Below the pieces are notes generated by a model. It ran no database searches, was not told the origin of the DNA, and saw only the letters and a list, made by a program, of their open reading frames with translations. The position numbers and the translations under genes are program-made. A DNA stretch of 64,000 nt from a phage: the sequence record PZ171032.1; one strand, given 5' to 3'. Within the stretch, counting starts at the first letter, position 1. Each line of letters starts with the position of its first letter. Below, piece by piece: positions 1 to 9,144 of this stretch.

Positions 1-63
1 TAGTGTCCGTATCACGGACAGTAGTGTCCGTATCACGGACAGTAGTGTCCGTATCACGGACAG
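1..63. repeat. three tandem copies of a 21-bp unit TAGTGTCCGTATCACGGACAG, each holding a 7-3-7 inverted repeat (TGTCCGT-ATC-ACGGACA); array is cut by the window edge
   Basis: Read directly: identical 21-mers at 1-21, 22-42, 43-63. Palindromic arms at 21-bp (two helical turn) spacing are typical of operators for a dimeric HTH protein. Confidence 0.9.
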
Positions 64-137
64 TTACTGACCTCTATTCCAGAGCGAACATAAAATATAC
101 GAATCCTTATAGTACAGATATTTAAGTTTTTACTGGT

Positions 138-488
138 CTAACCAGTTGTTGACATCCGAATAACTTCTTCTGGTGGCAAAACTTTGGAAAATGTGCATCT
201 TTTACCTCTCCCTTGTGTGGATGTTTCAACCACCCCTGCACACTCTAAAGTTTTAACGCACGCTGCTGCTTTTGTTTTCTTTATCCCAACATCTGCTGCA
301 ATTTTCCTTGTGCTGGGTGTGAAGCGTGAATTTCCTCCAAGCTTATACCAGTTGTGCAGGTAGCAGTATACGATCTTGTCATACAAGTCAAGAACAACAA
401 CCTCTCCAGTTGTGTCATTCAAAACTTTTGACATAGACAGTATTTCAAGGGGGACTTTAAGATATAGCAGCTTATCCCCATCTTTCAT
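138..488 (-). CDS. small putative DNA-binding protein (HTH/winged-helix-like)
   Basis: 116-aa ORF with AGGAG Shine-Dalgarno just upstream of the ATG; segment TRKIAADVGIKKTKAAACVKTLECAGVV looks like a helix-turn-helix. Sits next to the palindromic repeat array. No family assignment by eye. Confidence 0.5.
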   Translation of the reverse strand: MKDGDKLLYLKVPLEILSMSKVLNDTTGEVVVLDLYDKIVYCYLHNWYKLGGNSRFTPSTRKIAADVGIKKTKAAACVKTLECAGVVETSTQGRGKRCTFSKVLPPEEVIRMSTTG

Positions 489-535
489 ATCTCCTGATTC
501 TCCTTGTGTGGCAATTTTCTTTAAAATAGCAGGGA

Positions 536-1090
536 TTACTCCCCGCTGTCAATAGAAAAACTCATTGCAATACGGTATGCCTCTTCTAATGGTAAGAGTC
601 TCCCCCACACATCCCAACCGACATCAAGCTGCCTGCCAAACAACTGTTGTGTGGTTCCGTGAGCATGACCGAACAGTTGGACTGATCCGTGAGGCTTTCT
701 GTTCCACTTTGCAAATTGGTAATGGCTCATACAGATCAAATTCTTGTTGTGGCGAAGCTCGTAATAATCTACAACCTCATGACCGAACTCTTTCATAATT
801 CTGACAGTCGTCCTTGTGTCATGGTTGCCACGAACAAGAATAATATGTCCGTTCAGCATATTTAGAACATCTGGAAGCAATTTGTTGATATTCTTATCAT
901 TAGTGCACGCAATATCCCCCAAGTGAAACACAGTGTCTGCAGGTGACACAATAGAGTTCCACTTGGTGATGATTCCCGCATTCATACTGTCAAGATTGTG
1001 ATCATACTGAGATCTGTGTTTTTGACATGAATCAAACTCCATGACCCGCTGGTGGAGAAAGTGTGTGTCGCTTGTTACAAAGTATTTCAT
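536..1090 (-). CDS. calcineurin-like metallophosphoesterase (lambda-phosphatase / Ser-Thr phosphatase type)
   Basis: Motifs SDTHF, LGDIACT, VRGNHD, GHAH in canonical order. Start placed at the internal ATG (MKYF...) preceded by GAGGAA; the track ORF extends 35 codons further upstream into the next gene. Confidence 0.75.
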   Translation of the reverse strand: MKYFVTSDTHFLHQRVMEFDSCQKHRSQYDHNLDSMNAGIITKWNSIVSPADTVFHLGDIACTNDKNINKLLPDVLNMLNGHIILVRGNHDTRTTVRIMKEFGHEVVDYYELRHNKNLICMSHYQFAKWNRKPHGSVQLFGHAHGTTQQLFGRQLDVGWDVWGRLLPLEEAYRIAMSFSIDSGE

Positions 1091-1097
1091 ACATTCC

Positions 1098-1508
1098 TCA
1101 TTTAAGTTTAATGCAGTTTTTAAGCTGGCGTTCCATACGATCCACAACCTTGTCTGGAACATCATGAATGCTTTTATTACCGTGGAGGTTTTCAACCACG
1201 ATCACGGTATAACTATATCCATGACTGATCGCCATGTCAATATATTCTTGCACATATTTTTCTTTTGTAAACGTATTACTTACCACGATACGGTCGTAGC
1301 CCATACGCATCATATCTTCTACGTTATCTTTGCACCATTTTGCTGCAAGTGTTACTTTACTTGCATCCCAATTGTAATTGCCGTCATCGTCGTACCAGAA
1401 CATATCGTTCTCAAAATGTGGATACAGACCTTCTAAAGATAGCGCATTTGCCAGTGTTGATTTGCCAGACCCTGGTAGACCACGCACGATATATAGCATT
1501 TTAGACAT
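1098..1508 (-). CDS. P-loop kinase, polynucleotide 5'-kinase-like
   Basis: Walker A GLPGSGKST six residues after the chosen start MSKMLYIV (GGAGAG SD upstream); size and context fit a Pnk-type kinase. Confidence 0.55.
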   Translation of the reverse strand: MSKMLYIVRGLPGSGKSTLANALSLEGLYPHFENDMFWYDDDGNYNWDASKVTLAAKWCKDNVEDMMRMGYDRIVVSNTFTKEKYVQEYIDMAISHGYSYTVIVVENLHGNKSIHDVPDKVVDRMERQLKNCIKLK

Positions 1509-1568
1509 AGTAACTCTCCGTTTTAATTTTAATAATAGTATACCTAACTGTTTTGTTAATTTCAAGTG

Positions 1569-1598
1569 TTGACACCAGGTTATTTGTGTGGCAGAATA
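1569..1598 (+). promoter_or_regulatory. candidate sigma70 promoter (TTGACA, about 17 bp, CAGAAT) upstream of the RNA ligase gene
   Basis: Consensus -35 read directly; -10 is weak. Confidence 0.3.
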
Positions 1599-1626
1599 AA
1601 GGGACAAAATGACAAATGAGGAATGT

Positions 1627-2544
1627 ATGATGAAGTATTTTAATGCAGACGACCTGGTTGACAAAGGTCTTGTAACCAGCAGATATTACCCAGATCTTGG
1701 ATTAAAGATCTACAAATATGCCAGAAAAGTATTCTACAACAATTTATGGCATTTGTCTCCGCGTTTACTAGAGTGCCGAGGCATTGTTGTCGGTAATGAA
1801 GGAAATGTTGTGGCATGGCCCTTCACAAAAGTGTTTAATTTGGGAGAAAACTCCACCAACCTGCCTGACAATAAACTTGTGACGGCGGTAGAGAAAAAGA
1901 ACGGATTCCTTGGTGTGGTATCATCTCATAAAGGTGAACTATTGTTTTCAACAACCGGGTCTCTTGATTCTCCATATTGTAACCTTGCAAAGGAAACCAT
2001 CCAGGAGCAATGTGGTAATTTAGATCTTATCAAGAAGGTTATGGGCCATGAAAACATGACATTCATGTTTGAAATTTGTCACCCTTCAGATCCGCATATT
2101 GTTCAGGAAGATCATGGCGCATATTTGATAGGTTGCAGATATAATGATTCCGGAATAATGCTACCAGAAGCGGCTTTAGATGGGATTGCCAAATACCTTG
2201 GTGCAAAACGTCCTCACACTGTGCGTGAAATTCCGTTCAGTTATGCAAAAGAATTAGCTGCAGAAACAAGAGGTGAAGGGTATATGATTCGTAAGCCTTA
2301 CTACCCTTATGACCTGCAGCTGAAGATTAAGTCTCCATACTATCTGGCACGGAAGGCCGTAATGAGGGGTAAAGCTTGGAAGATTTGGGATGATGATATC
2401 TTTAAACGTATTGACGAAGAGTTTTATGGCATGGTAAACTTCATTCGTAGCAATTACACAGAAGATGTGTGGAACTGCCTCCTGGAGCAGGAACGCCGTG
2501 AGATACTTGATTACTATTTCCACAACGAGAACTATATGCAATGA
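1627..2544 (+). CDS. Rnl2-family RNA ligase (nucleotidyltransferase)
   Basis: EGYMIRKPYYPY and KIKSP match recalled T4 Rnl2 motifs IV (EGYVLKP) and V (KxK); candidate motif I KKNGF; motif III-like FMFE. Start set at ATGATG (1627) behind the same 17-nt initiation cassette used by the phosphatase gene. Confidence 0.55.
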   Translation: MMKYFNADDLVDKGLVTSRYYPDLGLKIYKYARKVFYNNLWHLSPRLLECRGIVVGNEGNVVAWPFTKVFNLGENSTNLPDNKLVTAVEKKNGFLGVVSSHKGELLFSTTGSLDSPYCNLAKETIQEQCGNLDLIKKVMGHENMTFMFEICHPSDPHIVQEDHGAYLIGCRYNDSGIMLPEAALDGIAKYLGAKRPHTVREIPFSYAKELAAETRGEGYMIRKPYYPYDLQLKIKSPYYLARKAVMRGKAWKIWDDDIFKRIDEEFYGMVNFIRSNYTEDVWNCLLEQERREILDYYFHNENYMQ

Positions 2545-2589
2545 AGAAGTGGAAAGTTATTTTTAATCACTCCAGCTTAAGGGGCCTGT

Positions 2590-3198
2590 ATGAAACTTGT
2601 ACATGGTGTTGGTGTTAATGATGCAGACTATCCTGTCAGGGTTTTAGACAAGGATACTGGAAAGAGAATCATGTGTCCTTTTTATATGACATGGTCAAAT
2701 ATGCTAGGAAGGTGCTACCTTAAAAACAAGAAATTTGAAGCTTATGCTATGGTAGAAGTCTGTGAAGAATGGAAAATCTTCAGCAACTTCAAGCGTTGGA
2801 TGGAAAAACAAGATTGGCAGGATAAATTTTTAGATAAAGATATCCTCTTTGAAAATAATCTTGTATACTGTCCAGAAGCGTGTATTTTTGTTCCCCGTGA
2901 AATAAACAACTTCTTTGTAGCAAGGATGCCACAAAGAGGGGAGTGTTTAATGGGAGTAAGAAGAAAAGGCCCATCTTTTGCTGCCTATTGCAAAGATGGG
3001 GTTAAGGACACGCAGGTTTATCTTGGAACCTTCCCCACGCAGATTGAGGCACATATGAGATACTTAGAATGTAAACTGCAACTTCTTAGAGATTTGATTA
3101 GAACTGTAGATGACAGTAGGTTGCTATTAGGATTACGAAGAATTGAAAATAAGATAGTTTTAGCTTTATCTTCAAAAACACCGATAGAGAATTTTTAG
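2590..3198 (+). CDS. homing-endonuclease-like DNA-binding protein with C-terminal AP2 domain
   Basis: C-terminal GVRRKGPSFAAYCKDGVKDTQVYLGTFPTQIEAHMRY fits the AP2 DNA-binding domain found in phage HNH/homing endonucleases; N-terminal YxxWxxMxxRC-type motif. No clear catalytic motif seen. Confidence 0.45.
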   Translation: MKLVHGVGVNDADYPVRVLDKDTGKRIMCPFYMTWSNMLGRCYLKNKKFEAYAMVEVCEEWKIFSNFKRWMEKQDWQDKFLDKDILFENNLVYCPEACIFVPREINNFFVARMPQRGECLMGVRRKGPSFAAYCKDGVKDTQVYLGTFPTQIEAHMRYLECKLQLLRDLIRTVDDSRLLLGLRRIENKIVLALSSKTPIENF

Positions 3199-3206
3199 AG
3201 GGATGT

Positions 3207-3554
3207 ATGAAAGTTTGGATAGATGATTTGCGTAACCCTGCTGACTACGGGCAGACAGATGCAATTTGGTTTAAAACTTCACAAGAGGCTATGGAGTTTC
3301 TCAATAATCCTGCTAAAATGTATCGAAGAGTGACAGAGTGGTTCTTTGACCATGATTTGGGTGAAGCCTCTGATCAAGACGGGTATGCTGTTTTATTGCG
3401 CCTGGAAGAGCTATTTGTATTTGGTAAGCCCCCTGTAGTTGACAACGTGAAGATTTTCGTGCATACTTCTAACCCATCAGCGGCTCGTAAATTCATGCTT
3501 GCAGCTGACTCGTTTAAAAAGTTTGGAATAGAGATTAAACAAAACATCTACTGA
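3207..3554 (+). CDS. small protein with receiver (CheY-like) fold signature; function unknown
   Basis: WIDDLR ... FDHDLGE ... VHTSNP places acidic residues where a receiver domain has its DD/D/T pocket. Pattern only. Confidence 0.3.
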   Translation: MKVWIDDLRNPADYGQTDAIWFKTSQEAMEFLNNPAKMYRRVTEWFFDHDLGEASDQDGYAVLLRLEELFVFGKPPVVDNVKIFVHTSNPSAARKFMLAADSFKKFGIEIKQNIY

Positions 3555-3562
3555 GGACACTT

Positions 3563-4324
3563 ATGCGACGACTGATTATTATCTCCGGTGCTGGTTTGAG
3601 CGCTGAATCTGGTATTCCCACTTTCCGATCTGGTAGCACTGCAATGTGGGAGAATTTCAGCATCGATGAGGTGTGCAACATCCACACCTTTGCCAAGAAC
3701 TACTACAAGGTGCATGACTTTTACAATGCACGTCGTGTAGCTCTAGGCGGTGTTGAGCCTAACCTTGCACATCTTCGGATCGCTGAGTGGTATTCCCGCT
3801 GGTCTGGTCGTGTGATCAACCTTACCACCAATGTAGATGATTTGCTGGAGCGTGCTGGTGTAAAACATGAAGATATTTTACATGTTCACGGGTATTTGCC
3901 AGAAATAGTCTATGAGGACGATGAAGGAAGTGACGTCATTAAGGACATTGGATACTCTGAGGTAGATGCAGGAAAGTATACCTGGGTTAAACCTAATGTG
4001 GTGTTCTTCGGAGAAGTAGCTCCGAAGTATACAGACATGTATGACCTGTTGACTTCTCTTACAAGCAATGATATAGTTATCCTTGTAGGGTGTTCCAACA
4101 CAGTTATCAATTTTAACTGGGAGCTATTCCCTGCCTGCAATAAGGGCACCAAACTGCTGATCGTTAACAAATACGACTCACAGCATCTAGAGGAGAATGG
4201 CATTTCACGTAGTGATATTTACCAGTACGAGGATCGCGGCATCCCGGTTTGGTTTAACGGGGCGGTTGACGCTTTCTCTGATAAAACATTCATTGAGACC
4301 GTAGAAAACTTTATGGAACTTTAA
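3563..4324 (+). CDS. Sir2-family NAD-dependent deacylase / ADP-ribosyltransferase-like protein
   Basis: IISGAGLSAESGIPTFRS (GAGIS..GIP.FR motif), NVDDL, HVHG; lacks the paired CxxC zinc motif. Confidence 0.7.
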   Translation: MRRLIIISGAGLSAESGIPTFRSGSTAMWENFSIDEVCNIHTFAKNYYKVHDFYNARRVALGGVEPNLAHLRIAEWYSRWSGRVINLTTNVDDLLERAGVKHEDILHVHGYLPEIVYEDDEGSDVIKDIGYSEVDAGKYTWVKPNVVFFGEVAPKYTDMYDLLTSLTSNDIVILVGCSNTVINFNWELFPACNKGTKLLIVNKYDSQHLEENGISRSDIYQYEDRGIPVWFNGAVDAFSDKTFIETVENFMEL

Positions 4325-4337
4325 AAGGAGACCTTTA

Positions 4338-5051
4338 ATGCTGAATACTAAATTAATTGACAACCTGGAAAAACTATCCCAACCTGAAAACTACCTTTGG
4401 TCTGCCAACTGGGTGGAAAACTGGAACCGTGTGGCAGCTAAAGTGAAAAAATCATACACACCATTCGAATTACAGCTTAGCTTCATTGAGGAAGAGTTCA
4501 ATGAAGTTTTGGAAGAGCTGGAGAAAGGTGATGGTGGAGATCACCTGCTAAAGGAGGCCTGCGATCTTCACGTTGTCACAAGTTATGCAGCTTATCTTGT
4601 TAATGACAATCACGAAAAGTGGTCAAACCTGTTTGATAATCCACGAGGTCTTAAGTTCAAGATCGGTGAGTTCTATGACACACTGATCGCTGCGAAAAAC
4701 ACATCCAAGCAAAGAGCGTCAGCTTACCGTTTAGCGGAGTTGTCAACAGCTTTGCTGTTCCAGCTTAGCGGCGATGTGTGCGGGATGATGCGTAAGGTTC
4801 TCAAATCGAATGACAGCAAGTTTGCACGGGTCAACCATCTACGGTATTCACACGGTGCCAGTGCAGATATGCCTGCTGAACAACTCATAGAGTTGGAGAT
4901 TAAAGATCTTGAGCGACGCTTTGATGGTCGATATGAAGGTTTTGTTGCTAAGGAAGAATTCTACAACGGTAATAAAGTTATCATATTCCTTGACAGTAAA
5001 GGTAAGATCATGAAGCCTTCGAGCTTCAAGGATGTAGCAGAGTATATTTAA
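4338..5051 (+). CDS. MazG-like nucleotide pyrophosphohydrolase domain protein (tentative)
   Basis: Acidic helix pattern FIEEEFNEVLEELEKGDGGDHLLKEACD resembles the EExxE...E..D metal-binding signature of all-alpha NTP-PPases. Confidence 0.35.
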   Translation: MLNTKLIDNLEKLSQPENYLWSANWVENWNRVAAKVKKSYTPFELQLSFIEEEFNEVLEELEKGDGGDHLLKEACDLHVVTSYAAYLVNDNHEKWSNLFDNPRGLKFKIGEFYDTLIAAKNTSKQRASAYRLAELSTALLFQLSGDVCGMMRKVLKSNDSKFARVNHLRYSHGASADMPAEQLIELEIKDLERRFDGRYEGFVAKEEFYNGNKVIIFLDSKGKIMKPSSFKDVAEYI

Positions 5052-5058
5052 CAACATG

Positions 5059-5085
5059 GCCGGGATTACCCGGCTTTACTTGTTG
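5059..5085 (+). terminator. rho-independent terminator candidate (GCCGGG-atta-CCCGGC + TTTACTTGTTG)
   Basis: Hairpin plus T-rich tail read directly after the stop of the preceding gene. Confidence 0.55.
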
Positions 5086-5423
5086 TGGAAAGTATGCAAG
5101 TGAGGCAGATAGTTATGTACAAGCACTCTAGAGATCTTGAAAACGATGCTGTGTTTGGGGATCAGATGAAAGAGTTGGTTAAACTTATAGGCAGGATAGA
5201 GGATAAGTTTGACACTAAGATCTACATCGACAGCAAAGTATTCAACCACAAAATATGGACAAATCTGTGTGTTGGACTACATGGAGATAAAGATGTGGTA
5301 AATTTAGTTGTAATTAAGTTCATAGTGTGGCAGAATAAAACTATAAATTATTACGATCCACACCTGCTTGTTTACCCGATAAAAGACCTATTAGATAAGG
5401 AGGACTGCAATGCCGTTATTTAA
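5085..5423 (+). CDS. hypothetical protein
   Basis: 112-aa ORF in co-directional packed array. Confidence 0.45.
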   Translation: MESMQVRQIVMYKHSRDLENDAVFGDQMKELVKLIGRIEDKFDTKIYIDSKVFNHKIWTNLCVGLHGDKDVVNLVVIKFIVWQNKTINYYDPHLLVYPIKDLLDKEDCNAVI

Positions 5424-5679
5424 TCTTGCTAAACCTGTAGAAGCACACCAGTTTGACGGAAGCTCTTCATCAGTATCTGATCTGCAACGGTGGATTGATA
5501 CGGGTGTGTTTACATCGTCACCTGTTCGGACCAGAGATCTTCGTCGCATGTGTGAGCTTGTAGAGCCGTTTGGTAACCTAGTCTTGTACCAGGGTGATTG
5601 GCTTGTTGATTTTATGGGGGACTGGTTGGTAATGAGTAAAGAAGAGATGTTTAAAATTTTTAAGGAAGAGGCCGAGTAA
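5410..5679 (+). CDS. hypothetical protein
   Basis: 89-aa ORF overlapping neighbours by a few nt (translational coupling pattern). Confidence 0.45.
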   Translation: MPLFNLAKPVEAHQFDGSSSSVSDLQRWIDTGVFTSSPVRTRDLRRMCELVEPFGNLVLYQGDWLVDFMGDWLVMSKEEMFKIFKEEAE

Positions 5680-6962
5680 TGCATCAAATCAAAACAACAC
5701 TGTACGCACTGAACAAAGATGGCAGCTACCAACAGTGGAAAGTATTCACGGATGGTGATAAGGTTATCGTAGAGTTTGGCAAGCTTGATGGTAAACTACA
5801 ATACAAAGAGACGATCTGCACACCTAAGAACGTGGGTCGCGCCAATGAAACTACAGCTGAGCAACAGGCCGAGCTGGAAGCGATCAGTAAGTGGGAAAAA
5901 CAGGTCCGACTCGGGTACGTGGAGAGTATGGAAGATTGTGAGCAAGGTGTTGATCTTTTACCCATGTTGGTGCATGACTACCTGAAGCGTGGCAAGGCAC
6001 TTAAATTACCTTGCTGGATCTTGCGTAAGTTAGATGGCCTTCGTCTGCTTGTTGTTTTCCAAAATGGTGAGCCTAAATTTATTTCCCGTGGTAATAAGTC
6101 CTACCCTATTCAAGGAAAGCTTTTAGAGCAACTTCGTTCTTTCCATTCTACCACTGGGATTAAACAACTTGATGGGGAACTATACATTCATGGTCTTCCT
6201 TTGCAGAAAATAGTGTCTCTTGCTAAACGGTGGCGCACACAGGAAGAGATTCAGGCCGAGATCGATAAAGACTATGAGGCAGATAAAAAACGCCGTCATG
6301 CAGCAATTAAGGCAGGCTTATCAACATACAAAAACTTCAACAAGGTAGATATTCCTGTCGATGTTGAGCCTGTTCGTGATGATTTGCGTTACGGTGGGTA
6401 CTGTAGCTACGATCTGGAGTATCACATTTTTGATATTCCTAGCGACAAGGTGTGGTGGGATCCAGAAACAGAGTCTGGACGCTGCAAGGATCTTATGGAT
6501 GCAGAGGATACCGTTACCACTCTGATGCTTGACCATATCAAGGTTGTTGACGCAGAGCTTGCGTACACAGTTGATCATTGCGAAGAATCTGTTGGTATAT
6601 TCATGTCCGAAGGATATGAAGGTACTATCATGCGTAATTTCTGCGGTAAATACGAGTACGGTCAGCGAACATCTGAAGCATTGAAATGGAAAAAGTTCAA
6701 CGACGCAGAGGTGAAAGTTATTGACGTTGAGAAAGATAAGAATGATGAAGGTGTTCTTATCTGTGTTGACAAGGAAGGTGTTATTGTTAAAATGAAGATG
6801 AAAGGCACGCACGAGGAGCGTAGCTATGACAGGATGCAGGAAATGATCGGCAAGTTTGTCACCTTCAAATATCAATCAAGGACAGAAGACAACAACTACC
6901 AATTCCCTGTCGGTATCTGCGTCCGAAATGTTGACCCAGACACTTGGGAGGTTCTGGAATGA
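5679..6962 (+). CDS. ATP-dependent DNA ligase
   Basis: Motif I KxDG (ILRKLDGLR), motif IV-like EGTIMR, motif V-like KWKK; size about 427 aa. Confidence 0.7.
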   Translation: MHQIKTTLYALNKDGSYQQWKVFTDGDKVIVEFGKLDGKLQYKETICTPKNVGRANETTAEQQAELEAISKWEKQVRLGYVESMEDCEQGVDLLPMLVHDYLKRGKALKLPCWILRKLDGLRLLVVFQNGEPKFISRGNKSYPIQGKLLEQLRSFHSTTGIKQLDGELYIHGLPLQKIVSLAKRWRTQEEIQAEIDKDYEADKKRRHAAIKAGLSTYKNFNKVDIPVDVEPVRDDLRYGGYCSYDLEYHIFDIPSDKVWWDPETESGRCKDLMDAEDTVTTLMLDHIKVVDAELAYTVDHCEESVGIFMSEGYEGTIMRNFCGKYEYGQRTSEALKWKKFNDAEVKVIDVEKDKNDEGVLICVDKEGVIVKMKMKGTHEERSYDRMQEMIGKFVTFKYQSRTEDNNYQFPVGICVRNVDPDTWEVLE

Positions 6963-7086
6963 TGTAGGATGGTTTAGTAGGTAACGGTAGCCAATTGAAT
7001 GATGGTTTTTCAATTGGCACCTACATAACCACACTATGCAGTGTTGTTGATCGGGTTAGTTATGAGCAAACTGGAGAGTATGAAAA

Positions 7087-7584
7087 ATGAAACTTGATAA
7101 AAATGTTCAACGAAAAGCTTTCTTGGATCTTATTGGCTGGGCAGAGGGAACAACAACCCACCCTGCCACCAAATGTGGAGGATACGATGTTGTAGCATAC
7201 GGGATGGACGGAAAACCTGAAATCTTTACAGATTTTTCTACGCACCCTTTTGCAAACGGTCGCCCTGGTAAAGTGTTTAACTCAAAAGGGCAAAGAACTA
7301 CAGCCTGCGGTAAATATCAATTTCTTGTCAAATACTGGGAACACTACAAAAAACAGCTTAAGTTGCCTGATTTTGGACCAGACAGTCAGGATAAGTGGGC
7401 GATCCAGTTGATCAGAGAACGTAAAGCACTTGAAGATATAGATAACGGTCATATTAAATCTGCTATACGTAAGACCTCAAATATTTGGGCTTCGTTCCCA
7501 TACAACCAGTACGACCAAAATCCAAAAACCATTGACAAGTTGCTTAAGAAATTTGTAGAGTTTGGAGGTGTTGTTCTGGATTAA
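7087..7584 (+). CDS. lysozyme / lytic transglycosylase of the phage lambda R type
   Basis: QRKAFLDLIGWAEGT and downstream blocks (GKYQFL, KQLKLPDF, SNIWAS) are colinear with lambda R as recalled; 165 aa. Confidence 0.85.
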   Translation: MKLDKNVQRKAFLDLIGWAEGTTTHPATKCGGYDVVAYGMDGKPEIFTDFSTHPFANGRPGKVFNSKGQRTTACGKYQFLVKYWEHYKKQLKLPDFGPDSQDKWAIQLIRERKALEDIDNGHIKSAIRKTSNIWASFPYNQYDQNPKTIDKLLKKFVEFGGVVLD

Positions 7585-7638
7585 TGATCAAAAGGTAGGC
7601 CACTCGCCTACCTTGCTACACCAGAGGTGTGTTGAGAT

Positions 7639-8400
7639 ATGACGATACATTTCTTTTTTAATGATCACTATCCTTATTGGTACAAGGATGGTGATCTAAT
7701 CTTTTGGAAACCTGGCTGCAGTAGAAATGGAAATAGGGCTGGACACTACAACAAAAAGACTGGATATTTCCAAGTGTATAATAAGCTGACAAATGTTAAA
7801 CGTGGCAGACATAGGGAAATTTTTGACATGTTTTACGGATGTGTCACAGATACTTGGCATATCGATCATATTGTCTCTAAGAAAAATTCTACTAACGGGG
7901 TGCCTGTAGACAAGATAGAAAACCTTCAAATGTTGAAGCCTTGGGATAACTACTGTAAGAGAGCCTTGGAAAATGTACAAAGCAATAATACCTCTACAGT
8001 GACTGGGGTGGTATGGCTGAAAAGAGAGGGTAAGTGGAGGGCAAGTAGAAGGATAAATAGGGTAAATGTTAGGTTGGGAGATTTTGACACTTTCGAAGAG
8101 GCTAAGTCTAGGATTGAATGGTCAATAGCTAACCCTGAAGAGGCTTTAAAGATAGTTCCAAACCCGCACAAGAATAATATCCTGCCTGGTATTGATTGGT
8201 CTAAGAAAGATACCTGTTGGAGGGCACGAGATAACAAAGGAAGAAACTTAAGGTGCTTCAACGACAGGAAGTGGCTAAATCCGTGGTGGGAGGCAGTTTG
8301 TGCAAGAAAATCTTGGGAAGTAAACTGTCTCTACGGAGGGATGTCACTAACTGAGTGGAAGTTATCCAGAGGCTATCCAAGACCTTGTGTTGAGGATTAA
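7639..8400 (+). CDS. HNH homing endonuclease with AP2 DNA-binding domain
   Basis: HIDHIVSKKNSTNG...NLQML (HNH core) followed by GVVWLKREGKWRASRRINRVNVRLGDFDTFEEA (AP2). Confidence 0.7.
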   Translation: MTIHFFFNDHYPYWYKDGDLIFWKPGCSRNGNRAGHYNKKTGYFQVYNKLTNVKRGRHREIFDMFYGCVTDTWHIDHIVSKKNSTNGVPVDKIENLQMLKPWDNYCKRALENVQSNNTSTVTGVVWLKREGKWRASRRINRVNVRLGDFDTFEEAKSRIEWSIANPEEALKIVPNPHKNNILPGIDWSKKDTCWRARDNKGRNLRCFNDRKWLNPWWEAVCARKSWEVNCLYGGMSLTEWKLSRGYPRPCVED

Positions 8401-8679: not shown

Positions 8680-9144
8680 GTGGAAGACGGACGTTTAATG
8701 AAGTCTGAACGCAGGCTTATTGTGCAACTGATCCCAGAAACAGCTTGGTATAATAACCTCCGAAACGCTGTGAAGAAGAGTGAGTGGGATAAGATCCGTA
8801 AGAAGTGCTACAGAGAGGCAAACTACACTTGCGAGGTGTGCGGCGGTAAAGGCAGCAAACATCCAGTGGAGTGTCATGAACTTTACACTTTCGAAGAGGG
8901 AGTGATCCGGCTTGTCGGACTGATAGCGTTGTGCCCAGATTGTCACACATCGGTACATCCTGGATTAGCAAATATCCGTGGAAAGTATGCTCAGGCAGTT
9001 AATCAGTTGGCTAAGGTGAATAAGATCACCAGAGGTATGGCAGAGGCGTATTACCGAGACTGCTTTGCAGAGTGGCGCGAGCTTAGTAAAGTTCCAGAAT
9101 GGAAGACTGACTTTTCGTGGATAGAGGGTTACCTTGATGGCTAA
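8680..9144 (+). CDS. zinc-binding HNH / His-Me-finger-like protein
   Basis: CEVCGG ... HPVECHE ... CPDCH spacing resembles HNH-type zinc-coordinating nucleases. Confidence 0.35.
   Translation: MEDGRLMKSERRLIVQLIPETAWYNNLRNAVKKSEWDKIRKKCYREANYTCEVCGGKGSKHPVECHELYTFEEGVIRLVGLIALCPDCHTSVHPGLANIRGKYAQAVNQLAKVNKITRGMAEAYYRDCFAEWRELSKVPEWKTDFSWIEGYLDG

Follow-up and report, generated by a model that had tools for sequence, protein, structure and literature searches.

The region at positions 536-5051 of a 64,000-nucleotide (nt) stretch of phage DNA (sequence record PZ171032.1; the whole stretch is called the window below) was analysed as a candidate cassette for the healing and sealing of broken RNA ends, in which a metallophosphoesterase, a P-loop kinase and an RNA ligase are encoded by neighbouring genes, referred to here as the trio. 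The window comes from a Vequintavirus, an rV5-like myovirus of Escherichia coli, and over its first 8 kb it shares 94-97% identity with more than 100 records, Shigella phage CM1 and Escherichia phage 241Ecol014PP being among the near-identical relatives. Seven genes were located in the region, two on the minus strand and five on the plus strand. The Pfam families that scored above cut-off in the cassette were PF12850/PF00149, PF13671, PF09511, PF20274 and PF02146, and the PHROG matches of the cassette proteins had E values from 1e-22 to 1e-108. Since Pfam and PHROG families were matched and the block is conserved at 94-97% identity in more than 100 phage genomes, these open reading frames (ORFs) are not due to chance. 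A preliminary description of this DNA had listed the phosphoesterase, kinase and ligase together with receiver-like, Sir2 and MazG-like proteins; all of these ORFs exist at or near the positions given there, and both the divergent arrangement (kinase and phosphoesterase on the minus strand, ligase on the plus strand) and the Sir2-like gene within 2 kb (3563-4324) were borne out. An HNH-family ORF at 2590-3198, between the ligase gene and that of the cyclic-phosphate-processing receiver-like protein (cREC), was missing from its gene list.

On the minus strand, the stand-alone P-loop kinase (AAA_33, 136 residues) is encoded at 1098-1508, and the gene for the calcineurin-fold metallophosphoesterase (184 residues) begins 7 nt after it; the mechanical ORF of the latter extends to 1195, and its coordinates were set at 536-1090 because homologues begin at MKYF. 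On the plus strand, the Rnl1-type ATP-dependent RNA ligase (305 residues) occupies 1627-2544 in an ORF that opens at 1609. The start at 1627/1630 is the most likely one, because the ligase homologues begin at MKF/MKYF and a GAGGA element, a consensus match, stands 6-9 nt 5' of the ATG at 1627. The divergent spacer between kinase and ligase measures 100 nt, and the intergenic region (1509-1626) holds back-to-back matches to the consensus of sigma-70-like promoters in addition to the ligase ribosome-binding site, namely TTGACA-17-CAGAAT with TG at 1569-1597 on the plus strand and TTGAAA-17-TATACT at 1565-1537 on the minus strand. The ligase, cREC, Sir2 and MazG genes are co-directional and closely packed, with spacers of 8-13 nt, and just past the stop codon of the MazG-like gene a GC-rich hairpin (5058-5075; 7-bp stem with 6 GC pairs, found on both strands) was matched by consensus as a candidate terminator of this unit. 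Together these pattern matches suggest two transcription units, kinase-phosphoesterase and ligase-(HNH)-cREC-Sir2-MazG.

Judged from its sequence, the ligase, the candidate sealing enzyme, is a member of the Rnl1 family and not an equivalog of T4 RnlA. The sole ligase family matched in Pfam was RNA_lig_T4_1 (PF09511; 55.7 bits against a cut-off of 28.3, E=8e-15), and the only match in NCBIfam was the T4 RnlA equivalog TIGR02308, at 39 bits against a cut-off of 242. Searches of the PDB with the single ligase and kinase sequences returned noise only, and profiles of homologues were required; the ligase profile, built from 40 homologues (45-49% identical), matched only T4 Rnl1 (2c5u/9do4, E=2e-12). 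Invariant across the 40 homologues are R57, K74, F76, K96xN98G99, E155, E223G224 and K239xK241, whose counterparts in T4 Rnl1 are R54, K75, F77, K99/G102, E159, E227/G228 and K240/K242; published mutational work has found the aligned T4 Rnl1 residues to be essential. Motif I, which carries the nucleophile, reads K96-K-N-G99, and motifs III, IV and V are present, as are the Rnl1-specific upstream Arg and Lys/Phe; T4 D101 is replaced by Asn and T4 K119 by Thr in the window ligase. With the lysine nucleophile in K96-x-N-G99 and the match to T4 Rnl1, the ORF is assigned to the ligases and not to an unrelated family. The label "Rnl2-like", under which it had been introduced, was dropped: a Pfam scan at E<=0.1 gave PF09511 alone, and no Rnl2 structure was among the PDB matches at E<=1.

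The kinase matched Pfam AAA_33 (PF13671) at 6e-10 and belongs to a family of 4,773 relatives, mostly stand-alone proteins of 127-140 residues. A profile of 45 sequences aligned over the whole domain with Capnocytophaga Pnkp1 (4xrp, 1.1e-5), T4 Pnk (1ly1/1ltq, 1.3e-5) and Pnk of C. thermocellum (CthPnk; 4gp7, 8.6e-5), the tRNA kinase PSTK coming next; the margins are modest (E about 1e-5). When the AlphaFold (AF2) model (predicted local distance difference test score, pLDDT, 90) was used in Foldseek, T4 Pnk and then CthPnk came out on top with template modelling (TM) scores of 0.72-0.79, against about 0.5 for adenylate and UMP-CMP kinases. The Walker A residues G10-x-P-G-S-G-K16-S17-T18 and D35 are invariant in the 45 sequences, and D35 aligns with the catalytic Asp35 of T4 Pnk. 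On the strength of the profile and the model, the protein looks like a polynucleotide kinase, for which phosphorylation of RNA 5'-OH ends is predicted. The identity as an adenylate or other nucleotide kinase was placed below that of polynucleotide kinase both by profile and by fold; polynucleotide kinases are the closest relatives, and fusion to the ligase in 11 viral contigs, described below, points in the same direction.

The sequence of the phosphoesterase, a candidate end-healing enzyme for 2',3'-cyclic-phosphate or 3'-phosphate ends, is that of an intact binuclear metallophosphoesterase of the Aq_1665 type, with the calcineurin fold confirmed. Its motifs D8xH10, G58D59, G88N89H90(D91), H123 and G141H142xH144 are invariant in 39 sequences, and the nearest solved structure by far is that of Aquifex Aq_1665 (profile E=3.5e-28). 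Of the two labels previously attached to it, "calcineurin-type" holds and "lambda-phosphatase-type" does not: motif II is without the DRG of lambda/PPP enzymes, so that the lambda type is not specifically supported, and an identity as lambda phosphatase or PPP-type enzyme was rejected on the absence of the GDxxDRG signature and the closeness of Aq_1665.

Linkage of the three genes was assessed in 80 IMG/VR viral loci picked by the ligase alone (36-89% identity) and then searched with the window proteins. The kinase was found in 73 of the 80 loci, within 500 bp of the ligase in 60 and on the same strand in 72; the phosphoesterase was found in 62, and kinase and phosphoesterase together in 59. 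The trio occurs in the orders phosphoesterase-ligase-kinase and kinase-ligase-phosphoesterase and in the divergent rV5 order. In 11 loci kinase and ligase form a single ORF, and for one of these (L052:7527-8825) Pfam confirmed the fusion, with AAA_33 at residues 16-115 and RNA_lig_T4_1 at residues 184-367. The retention of linkage under a shuffled order and the occurrence of fusions argue strongly for a single pathway of end healing and sealing. No phosphoesterase homologue was found within 8 kb on the kinase-ligase fusion contigs. These contigs, which are from uncultivated viruses (L039, L042, L044-L046, L049, L050, L052, L053, L055 and L056), encode fusion proteins of about 430 residues, and in six of them the fusion gene is followed, 5-6 kb further downstream, by a phage-borne transfer-messenger RNA (tmRNA) gene; L054, where the ligase part is alone on the contig, likewise carries a phage-borne tmRNA gene.

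Genes for tRNA or tmRNA were present within 8 kb in 30 of the 60 loci scanned. No tRNA gene was found within the window; the tRNA cluster of rV5-like genomes is situated about 3 kb past the phosphoesterase gene, a position just off the left end of the window. Of about 50,700 phage genomes searched, 760 had the ligase family and 622 the kinase family, the carriers including Vequintavirus, Phapecoctavirus, Klebsiella and Pseudomonas Pakpunavirus-like, Vibrio, Acinetobacter and Streptomyces phages. The other genes of the cassette are much less regular, with cREC in 10, Sir2 in 11 and MazG in 13 of the 80 ligase loci; these three are restricted to rV5-like phages and a few related phages of about 145 kb.

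The trio is thus likely to be a phage RNA end-healing and end-sealing module, which would follow the logic of T4 Pnkp/Rnl1 with a phosphatase chemistry like that of bacterial Pnkp, divided among three small proteins. Within the reach of sequence analysis, structure prediction and comparative genomics, the healing and sealing proposed in the preliminary description stands, its family labels Rnl2 and lambda-type excepted. In the predicted pathway, the 136-residue P-loop kinase would phosphorylate the 5'-OH, and the binuclear metallophosphoesterase would open and remove a 2',3'-cyclic phosphate or a 3'-phosphate to leave a 3'-OH. The Rnl1-type ligase would be adenylylated on Lys96 and would then join the 3'-OH to the 5'-PO4. 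The substrates would most plausibly be tRNAs cut by host anticodon nucleases, which bear 5'-OH and 2',3'-cyclic-phosphate ends, and the module would accordingly serve in counter-defence. The trio would be transcribed divergently from a single short control region, with the ligase gene heading a putative operon in which genes for cREC, a zinc-less sirtuin and a MazG-like hydrolase follow. The products of the last three genes would be accessory and would probably process cyclic-phosphate, 2'-phosphate or NAD-derived by-products.

Characterized systems resemble this arrangement. T4 Pnkp and Rnl1, which counter the PrrC anticodon nuclease, likewise comprise a 5'-kinase, a 3'-end phosphatase and an Rnl1-family ligase, and the fold and catalytic Asp of the window kinase match T4 Pnk as the ligase motifs match T4 Rnl1. 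The T4 kinase is, however, fused to a HAD (DxDxT) phosphatase (PMC3592404), whereas here the metallophosphoesterase is separate and the kinase is a stand-alone protein of 136 residues; the ligase also differs, in its 39 versus 242 bits on the RnlA equivalog and in a much shorter C-terminal region. Bacterial Pnkp/Hen1, including the Pnkp1-Rnl-Hen1 proteins of Capnocytophaga, shares the set of P-loop polynucleotide kinase, binuclear metallophosphoesterase and ATP-dependent ligase (PMC2190708, PMC3675462, PMC4411300), and Pnkp1 and CthPnk are among the best PDB matches of the window kinase. The metallophosphoesterase domain of CthPnkp heals 2',3'-cyclic phosphate ends (PMC2190708, PMC3675462), which is a chemical precedent for the step proposed here; the CthPnkp phosphatase belongs to the lambda/PPP-type clade, whereas the window phosphoesterase is without that signature.

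The cassette itself is already known, being annotated in GenBank, where the labels RNA ligase, polynucleotide kinase, phosphoesterase and cyclic-phosphate-processing-domain protein are in use, and published as a prediction. Exactly this neighbourhood was described, by computation only, by Iyer, Burroughs, Anantharaman and Aravind in 2022 (Viruses 14:1977, PMC9503650, section 3.7.3) as the second type of sirtuin-centred RNA-repair neighbourhood, "prototyped by Escherichia phage V5 and Proteus phage Mydo", and no substantive difference from their type 2 neighbourhood was found. cREC had been defined in the 2021 jumbo-phage paper of the same group (PMC7824862). The combination of domains, which had been called unusual in the preliminary description, can therefore not be regarded as such: the split trio is widespread in phages, bacterial Pnkp has an equal architecture (PMC2190708, PMC3675462) and the phage V5 neighbourhood has been in print since 2022 (PMC9503650). 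New beyond that paper are the trio as a widely conserved core, the kinase-ligase fusions, the absence of the zinc cysteines from the sirtuin clade and the HNH insertion in this cassette.

Several points weigh against an RNA-repair module of this kind. A search of the published literature brought up no work, biochemical or genetic, on the cassette proteins. The kinase was named a "nucleotide kinase" by Iyer et al. (PMC9503650), and it has no counterpart of Arg38, which in T4 Pnk is one of the basic residues (with Arg126) that hold the polynucleotide and the NTP, a W or F standing three residues after D35. In its E-N-R-H-G motif the window kinase has Leu108 (codon CTC on the minus strand, window 1185-1187) where 42 of the 45 homologues have Arg; among the fetched loci, Arg was present in 35 of 35 matches to the motif. 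Leu108 may lower or alter the predicted kinase activity, or Lys112 may substitute for the Arg, and in the lid region the residue match to T4 Pnk is uncertain. Leu108 is not private to the window, as a possibly inactivating mutation might be, but is also found in the BASEL phage Bas56 AlexBoehm. Since it is common to the window and Bas56, it is a lineage polymorphism; most rV5-like phages have Arg108, as seen in JEP1, 241Ecol014PP and SophiaRose.

For the ligase, the adverse point is its length: about 65 residues follow motif V, where the alignment stops, against about 120 in T4 Rnl1, whose C-terminal domain is held to confer tRNA preference. With so short a region, tRNA specificity is unproven; the segment nevertheless holds K249, R253, E270-E271, W288 and R296, all invariant in the 40 sequences. 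For the phosphoesterase, the closest solved relative, Aq_1665, is without known function, and distant homologues occur in prophage-like contexts without any ligase, contexts that are uninformative for function.

A further adverse point came from transposon insertion data for the Vequintavirus Bas54 on E. coli K-12, taken from Extended Data Table 8 of bioRxiv 10.1101/2025.11.20.689424 with the column meanings as interpreted here. The six orthologues bas54_0206-0211 bore abundant insertions (means of 88-406 per TA site), against a mean of 13.6 for the adjoining regulator gene. None of the six was significantly depleted in the legible comparisons of that table (q 0.75-1.0), among which no host showed a requirement for them. 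On this part of the data, such dispensability fits an accessory, condition-specific counter-defence module.

Downstream of the ligase, cREC (115 residues, 3207-3554) matched Pfam PF20274 at 60.3 bits against a cut-off of 27 (E=3e-16). In 12 phage homologues D6D7, FD48xD50LG and H86-T/S-S-N-P90 are retained, the acidic residues D6-D7 and D48/D50 being of the receiver type; what the cREC family catalyses is itself only a prediction (PMC7824862, PMC9503650). The Sir2-family protein (253 residues, CobB/Sirt5-like, 3563-4324) matched Pfam SIR2 (PF02146) at 95.5 bits (5e-27), and its best PDB match was E. coli CobB (1s5p, 1.6e-21); its scores on the CobB equivalogs of NCBIfam were all far below cut-off. 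The nicotinamide adenine dinucleotide (NAD) motifs G9AGxSxxSG and T88TNVD and the catalytic H109 are invariant in the phage homologues, and no zinc-binding Cys tetrad was found between HG and KPNVVFFGE in the window sirtuin or in 11 phage homologues. The 237-residue protein encoded at 4338-5051, a MazG/HisE-like all-alpha nucleotide pyrophosphohydrolase-like protein, matched PHROG 671 at 7e-22; its Pfam match, PRA-PH, was weak (E=0.079), as was that of its profile to HisE (1yvw, E=0.009) in the PDB over the ExxE...ExxD segment. E53xxE56 and E73xxD76 are present in it, and E52, E53, E56 and D76 are invariant in 9 homologues.

As the main alternative to the three-protein module, all six genes may form an NAD-dependent pathway like that of Trl1/Tpt1, as put forward by Iyer et al. 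(PMC9503650), who proposed that the sirtuin removes the RNA 2'-phosphate in the manner of KptA. cREC or the phosphoesterase would open the cyclic phosphate to a 2'-phosphate, kinase and ligase would join the ends, the zinc-less sirtuin would move the 2'-phosphate to NAD+ as KptA/Tpt1 does, and cREC, the phosphoesterase or MazG would degrade the resulting ADP-ribose 1''-2'' cyclic phosphate. The fungal and plant Trl1 and Tpt1 (KptA) also combine a kinase and a PF09511-family ligase with an NAD+-using enzyme, here encoded near the ligase, and stand-alone RNA 5'-OH kinases of Mucorales (9d8a, 9drz) are among the PDB matches of the window kinase. The KxNG of ligase motif I is also that of fungal Trl1. 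The pathway would be consistent with the packing of ligase, cREC, Sir2 and MazG genes on one strand before a single terminator-like hairpin, the ligase and cREC genes overlapping by 4 nt in relatives. It would also suit a sirtuin that has the NAD-binding motifs and the catalytic His and is without the cysteines of the zinc module, the absence of which argues against ordinary protein deacylation.

The distribution of the genes makes this pathway doubtful. In most of the 80 ligase loci the trio is found without Sir2, cREC or MazG, so that healing and sealing do not need them, and only 11-12 of 35 viral loci of the sirtuin clade have the ligase, kinase or phosphoesterase no more than 8 kb away, which refuted the clade as a constant companion of the trio. 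On Phapecoctavirus contigs the sirtuin gene is about 30 kb from the ligase trio, beside a C5 DNA methylase gene. A second, independent link to RNA ends speaks for the sirtuin: in T5-like contigs the clade stands beside a HAD RNA-repair phosphatase, as at L092:7986-9491, where a HAD "Swiss-army-knife" RNA-repair phosphatase (PF18143, E=2e-20) comes immediately after the zinc-less sirtuin and the third neighbourhood type of Iyer et al. is reproduced. The link of the sirtuin to RNA-end processing is hence recurrent, but much looser than the linkage inside the trio. Moreover, no sirtuin is known to act on an RNA 2'-phosphate, and among structures the ligase profile found T4 Rnl1 but none of Trl1. 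For its cyclic phosphodiesterase, Trl1 has a 2H enzyme rather than a metallophosphoesterase or cREC, and Tpt1 has the ADP-ribosyltransferase fold, whereas the NAD+ enzyme here is a sirtuin. The component activity, a sirtuin serving as an NAD+-dependent RNA 2'-phosphotransferase (an analogue of Tpt1/KptA on the Sir2 fold) with cREC as a cyclic phosphodiesterase, is equally unlikely; cREC would then either make the 2'-phosphate substrate of the sirtuin or destroy its ADP-ribose cyclic-phosphate product. If this were true, sirtuins would gain a new enzymatic activity, and cREC would have an activity assigned to it for the first time.

A role in small-molecule counter-defence or nucleotide metabolism, in which a nucleotide kinase together with Sir2, cREC and MazG would act on NAD+, ADP-ribose-derived or cyclic-nucleotide immune signals and the ligase would be a mere neighbour, would agree with the term "nucleotide kinase" and with the NAD+/ADP-ribose network to which cREC, the sirtuin and MazG have been assigned (PMC9503650), and gluconate, adenylate and UMP-CMP kinases do occur among the fold matches of the kinase. 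We consider it very improbable. Polynucleotide kinases headed the profile matches as well as the fold matches, their TM scores being clearly higher, and the fusion of kinase and ligase in 11 loci and their adjacency in 60 of 80 are mostly seen without Sir2, cREC and MazG. Least probable, by a little, is that kinase and phosphoesterase clean DNA nicks with 5'-OH/3'-phosphate ends for the phage DNA ligase (5679-6962), for which it may be said that T4 Pnk acts on DNA too and that a DNA ligase gene is in the locus in 34 of 84 loci, or that the ligase is mainly a non-catalytic tail-fibre attachment factor like T4 gp63, as the annotation "RNA ligase and tail fiber attachment catalyst" in many records would have it, since it is the RNA ligase, rather than the DNA ligase, that is the conserved partner and takes part in the fusions, and since in the Bas54 data, as interpreted here, the RNA ligase gene tolerates insertions (mean of 192 reads per TA site) that T4 rnlA (36) and Bas37 rnlA (6) tolerate poorly, so that a role of the Vequintavirus ligase in virion assembly is unlikely.

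Cleavage of tRNA is a major arm of anti-phage immunity, practised by PrrC, RloC, PARIS, retron-associated PtuAB, Cas13 through collateral cleavage, and OLD. To our knowledge, T4 Pnkp/Rnl1 is essentially the only repair answer of a phage worked out so far. The predicted end-healing and sealing module would be a compact three-protein alternative to it, carried by phages that include the therapeutic candidates Vequintavirus, Phapecoctavirus and Pakpunavirus. If it works, it would account for some of the range of defences that these phages evade and be a source of small new RNA-end-modifying enzymes, and the attached sirtuin, cREC and MazG genes would offer a testable route to new sirtuin chemistry.

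The HNH-family homing-endonuclease-like gene at 2590-3198 (202 residues) matched PHROG 953, "HNH endonuclease", at 2.5e-69 and had no Pfam match. It is a mobile insertion within the cassette and not a component of repair. Other rV5-like phages are without this gene, and their ligase stop overlaps the cREC start by 4 nt; in the window, the original cREC start (ATGAAGAAGTGG) is left as a remnant past the ligase stop. The tract at about 2550-3410, made up of the HNH gene and the 5'-most ~205 nt of cREC, shares 85% identity with Phapecoctavirus SKA64, where the same HNH gene lies directly upstream of that phage's own cREC gene. The window cREC is therefore chimeric, its first ~68 codons being Phapecoctavirus-like and the remainder rV5-like. 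The tract looks like the product of a homing-endonuclease transfer between phage subfamilies in which the flank was co-converted, leaving a chimeric but intact cREC.

The early-gene region downstream of the cassette is dense in homing-endonuclease-like genes, two more HNH endonuclease genes being placed at 7639-8400 and 8680-9144 by the annotation of relatives. The DNA ligase gene at 5679-6962, just downstream of the cassette, encodes an ATP-dependent enzyme. Among the records close to the window, 19 "Campylobacter phage" entries (MG0656xx, host Campylobacter jejuni) are 95-96% identical to positions 1-8000, which suggests that hosts were mislabelled or that coliphages contaminated that data set. 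At the left edge, positions 1-64 hold three perfect tandem copies of a 21-bp unit, each with the 17-bp palindrome TGTCCGT-ATC-ACGGACA, and no copies of the unit were found elsewhere in the window. The array is interrupted by the window edge and has four copies in 241Ecol014PP. It resembles an operator or iteron array and lies just downstream of a small gene (138-488) that is annotated as a transcriptional regulator or replication initiator.

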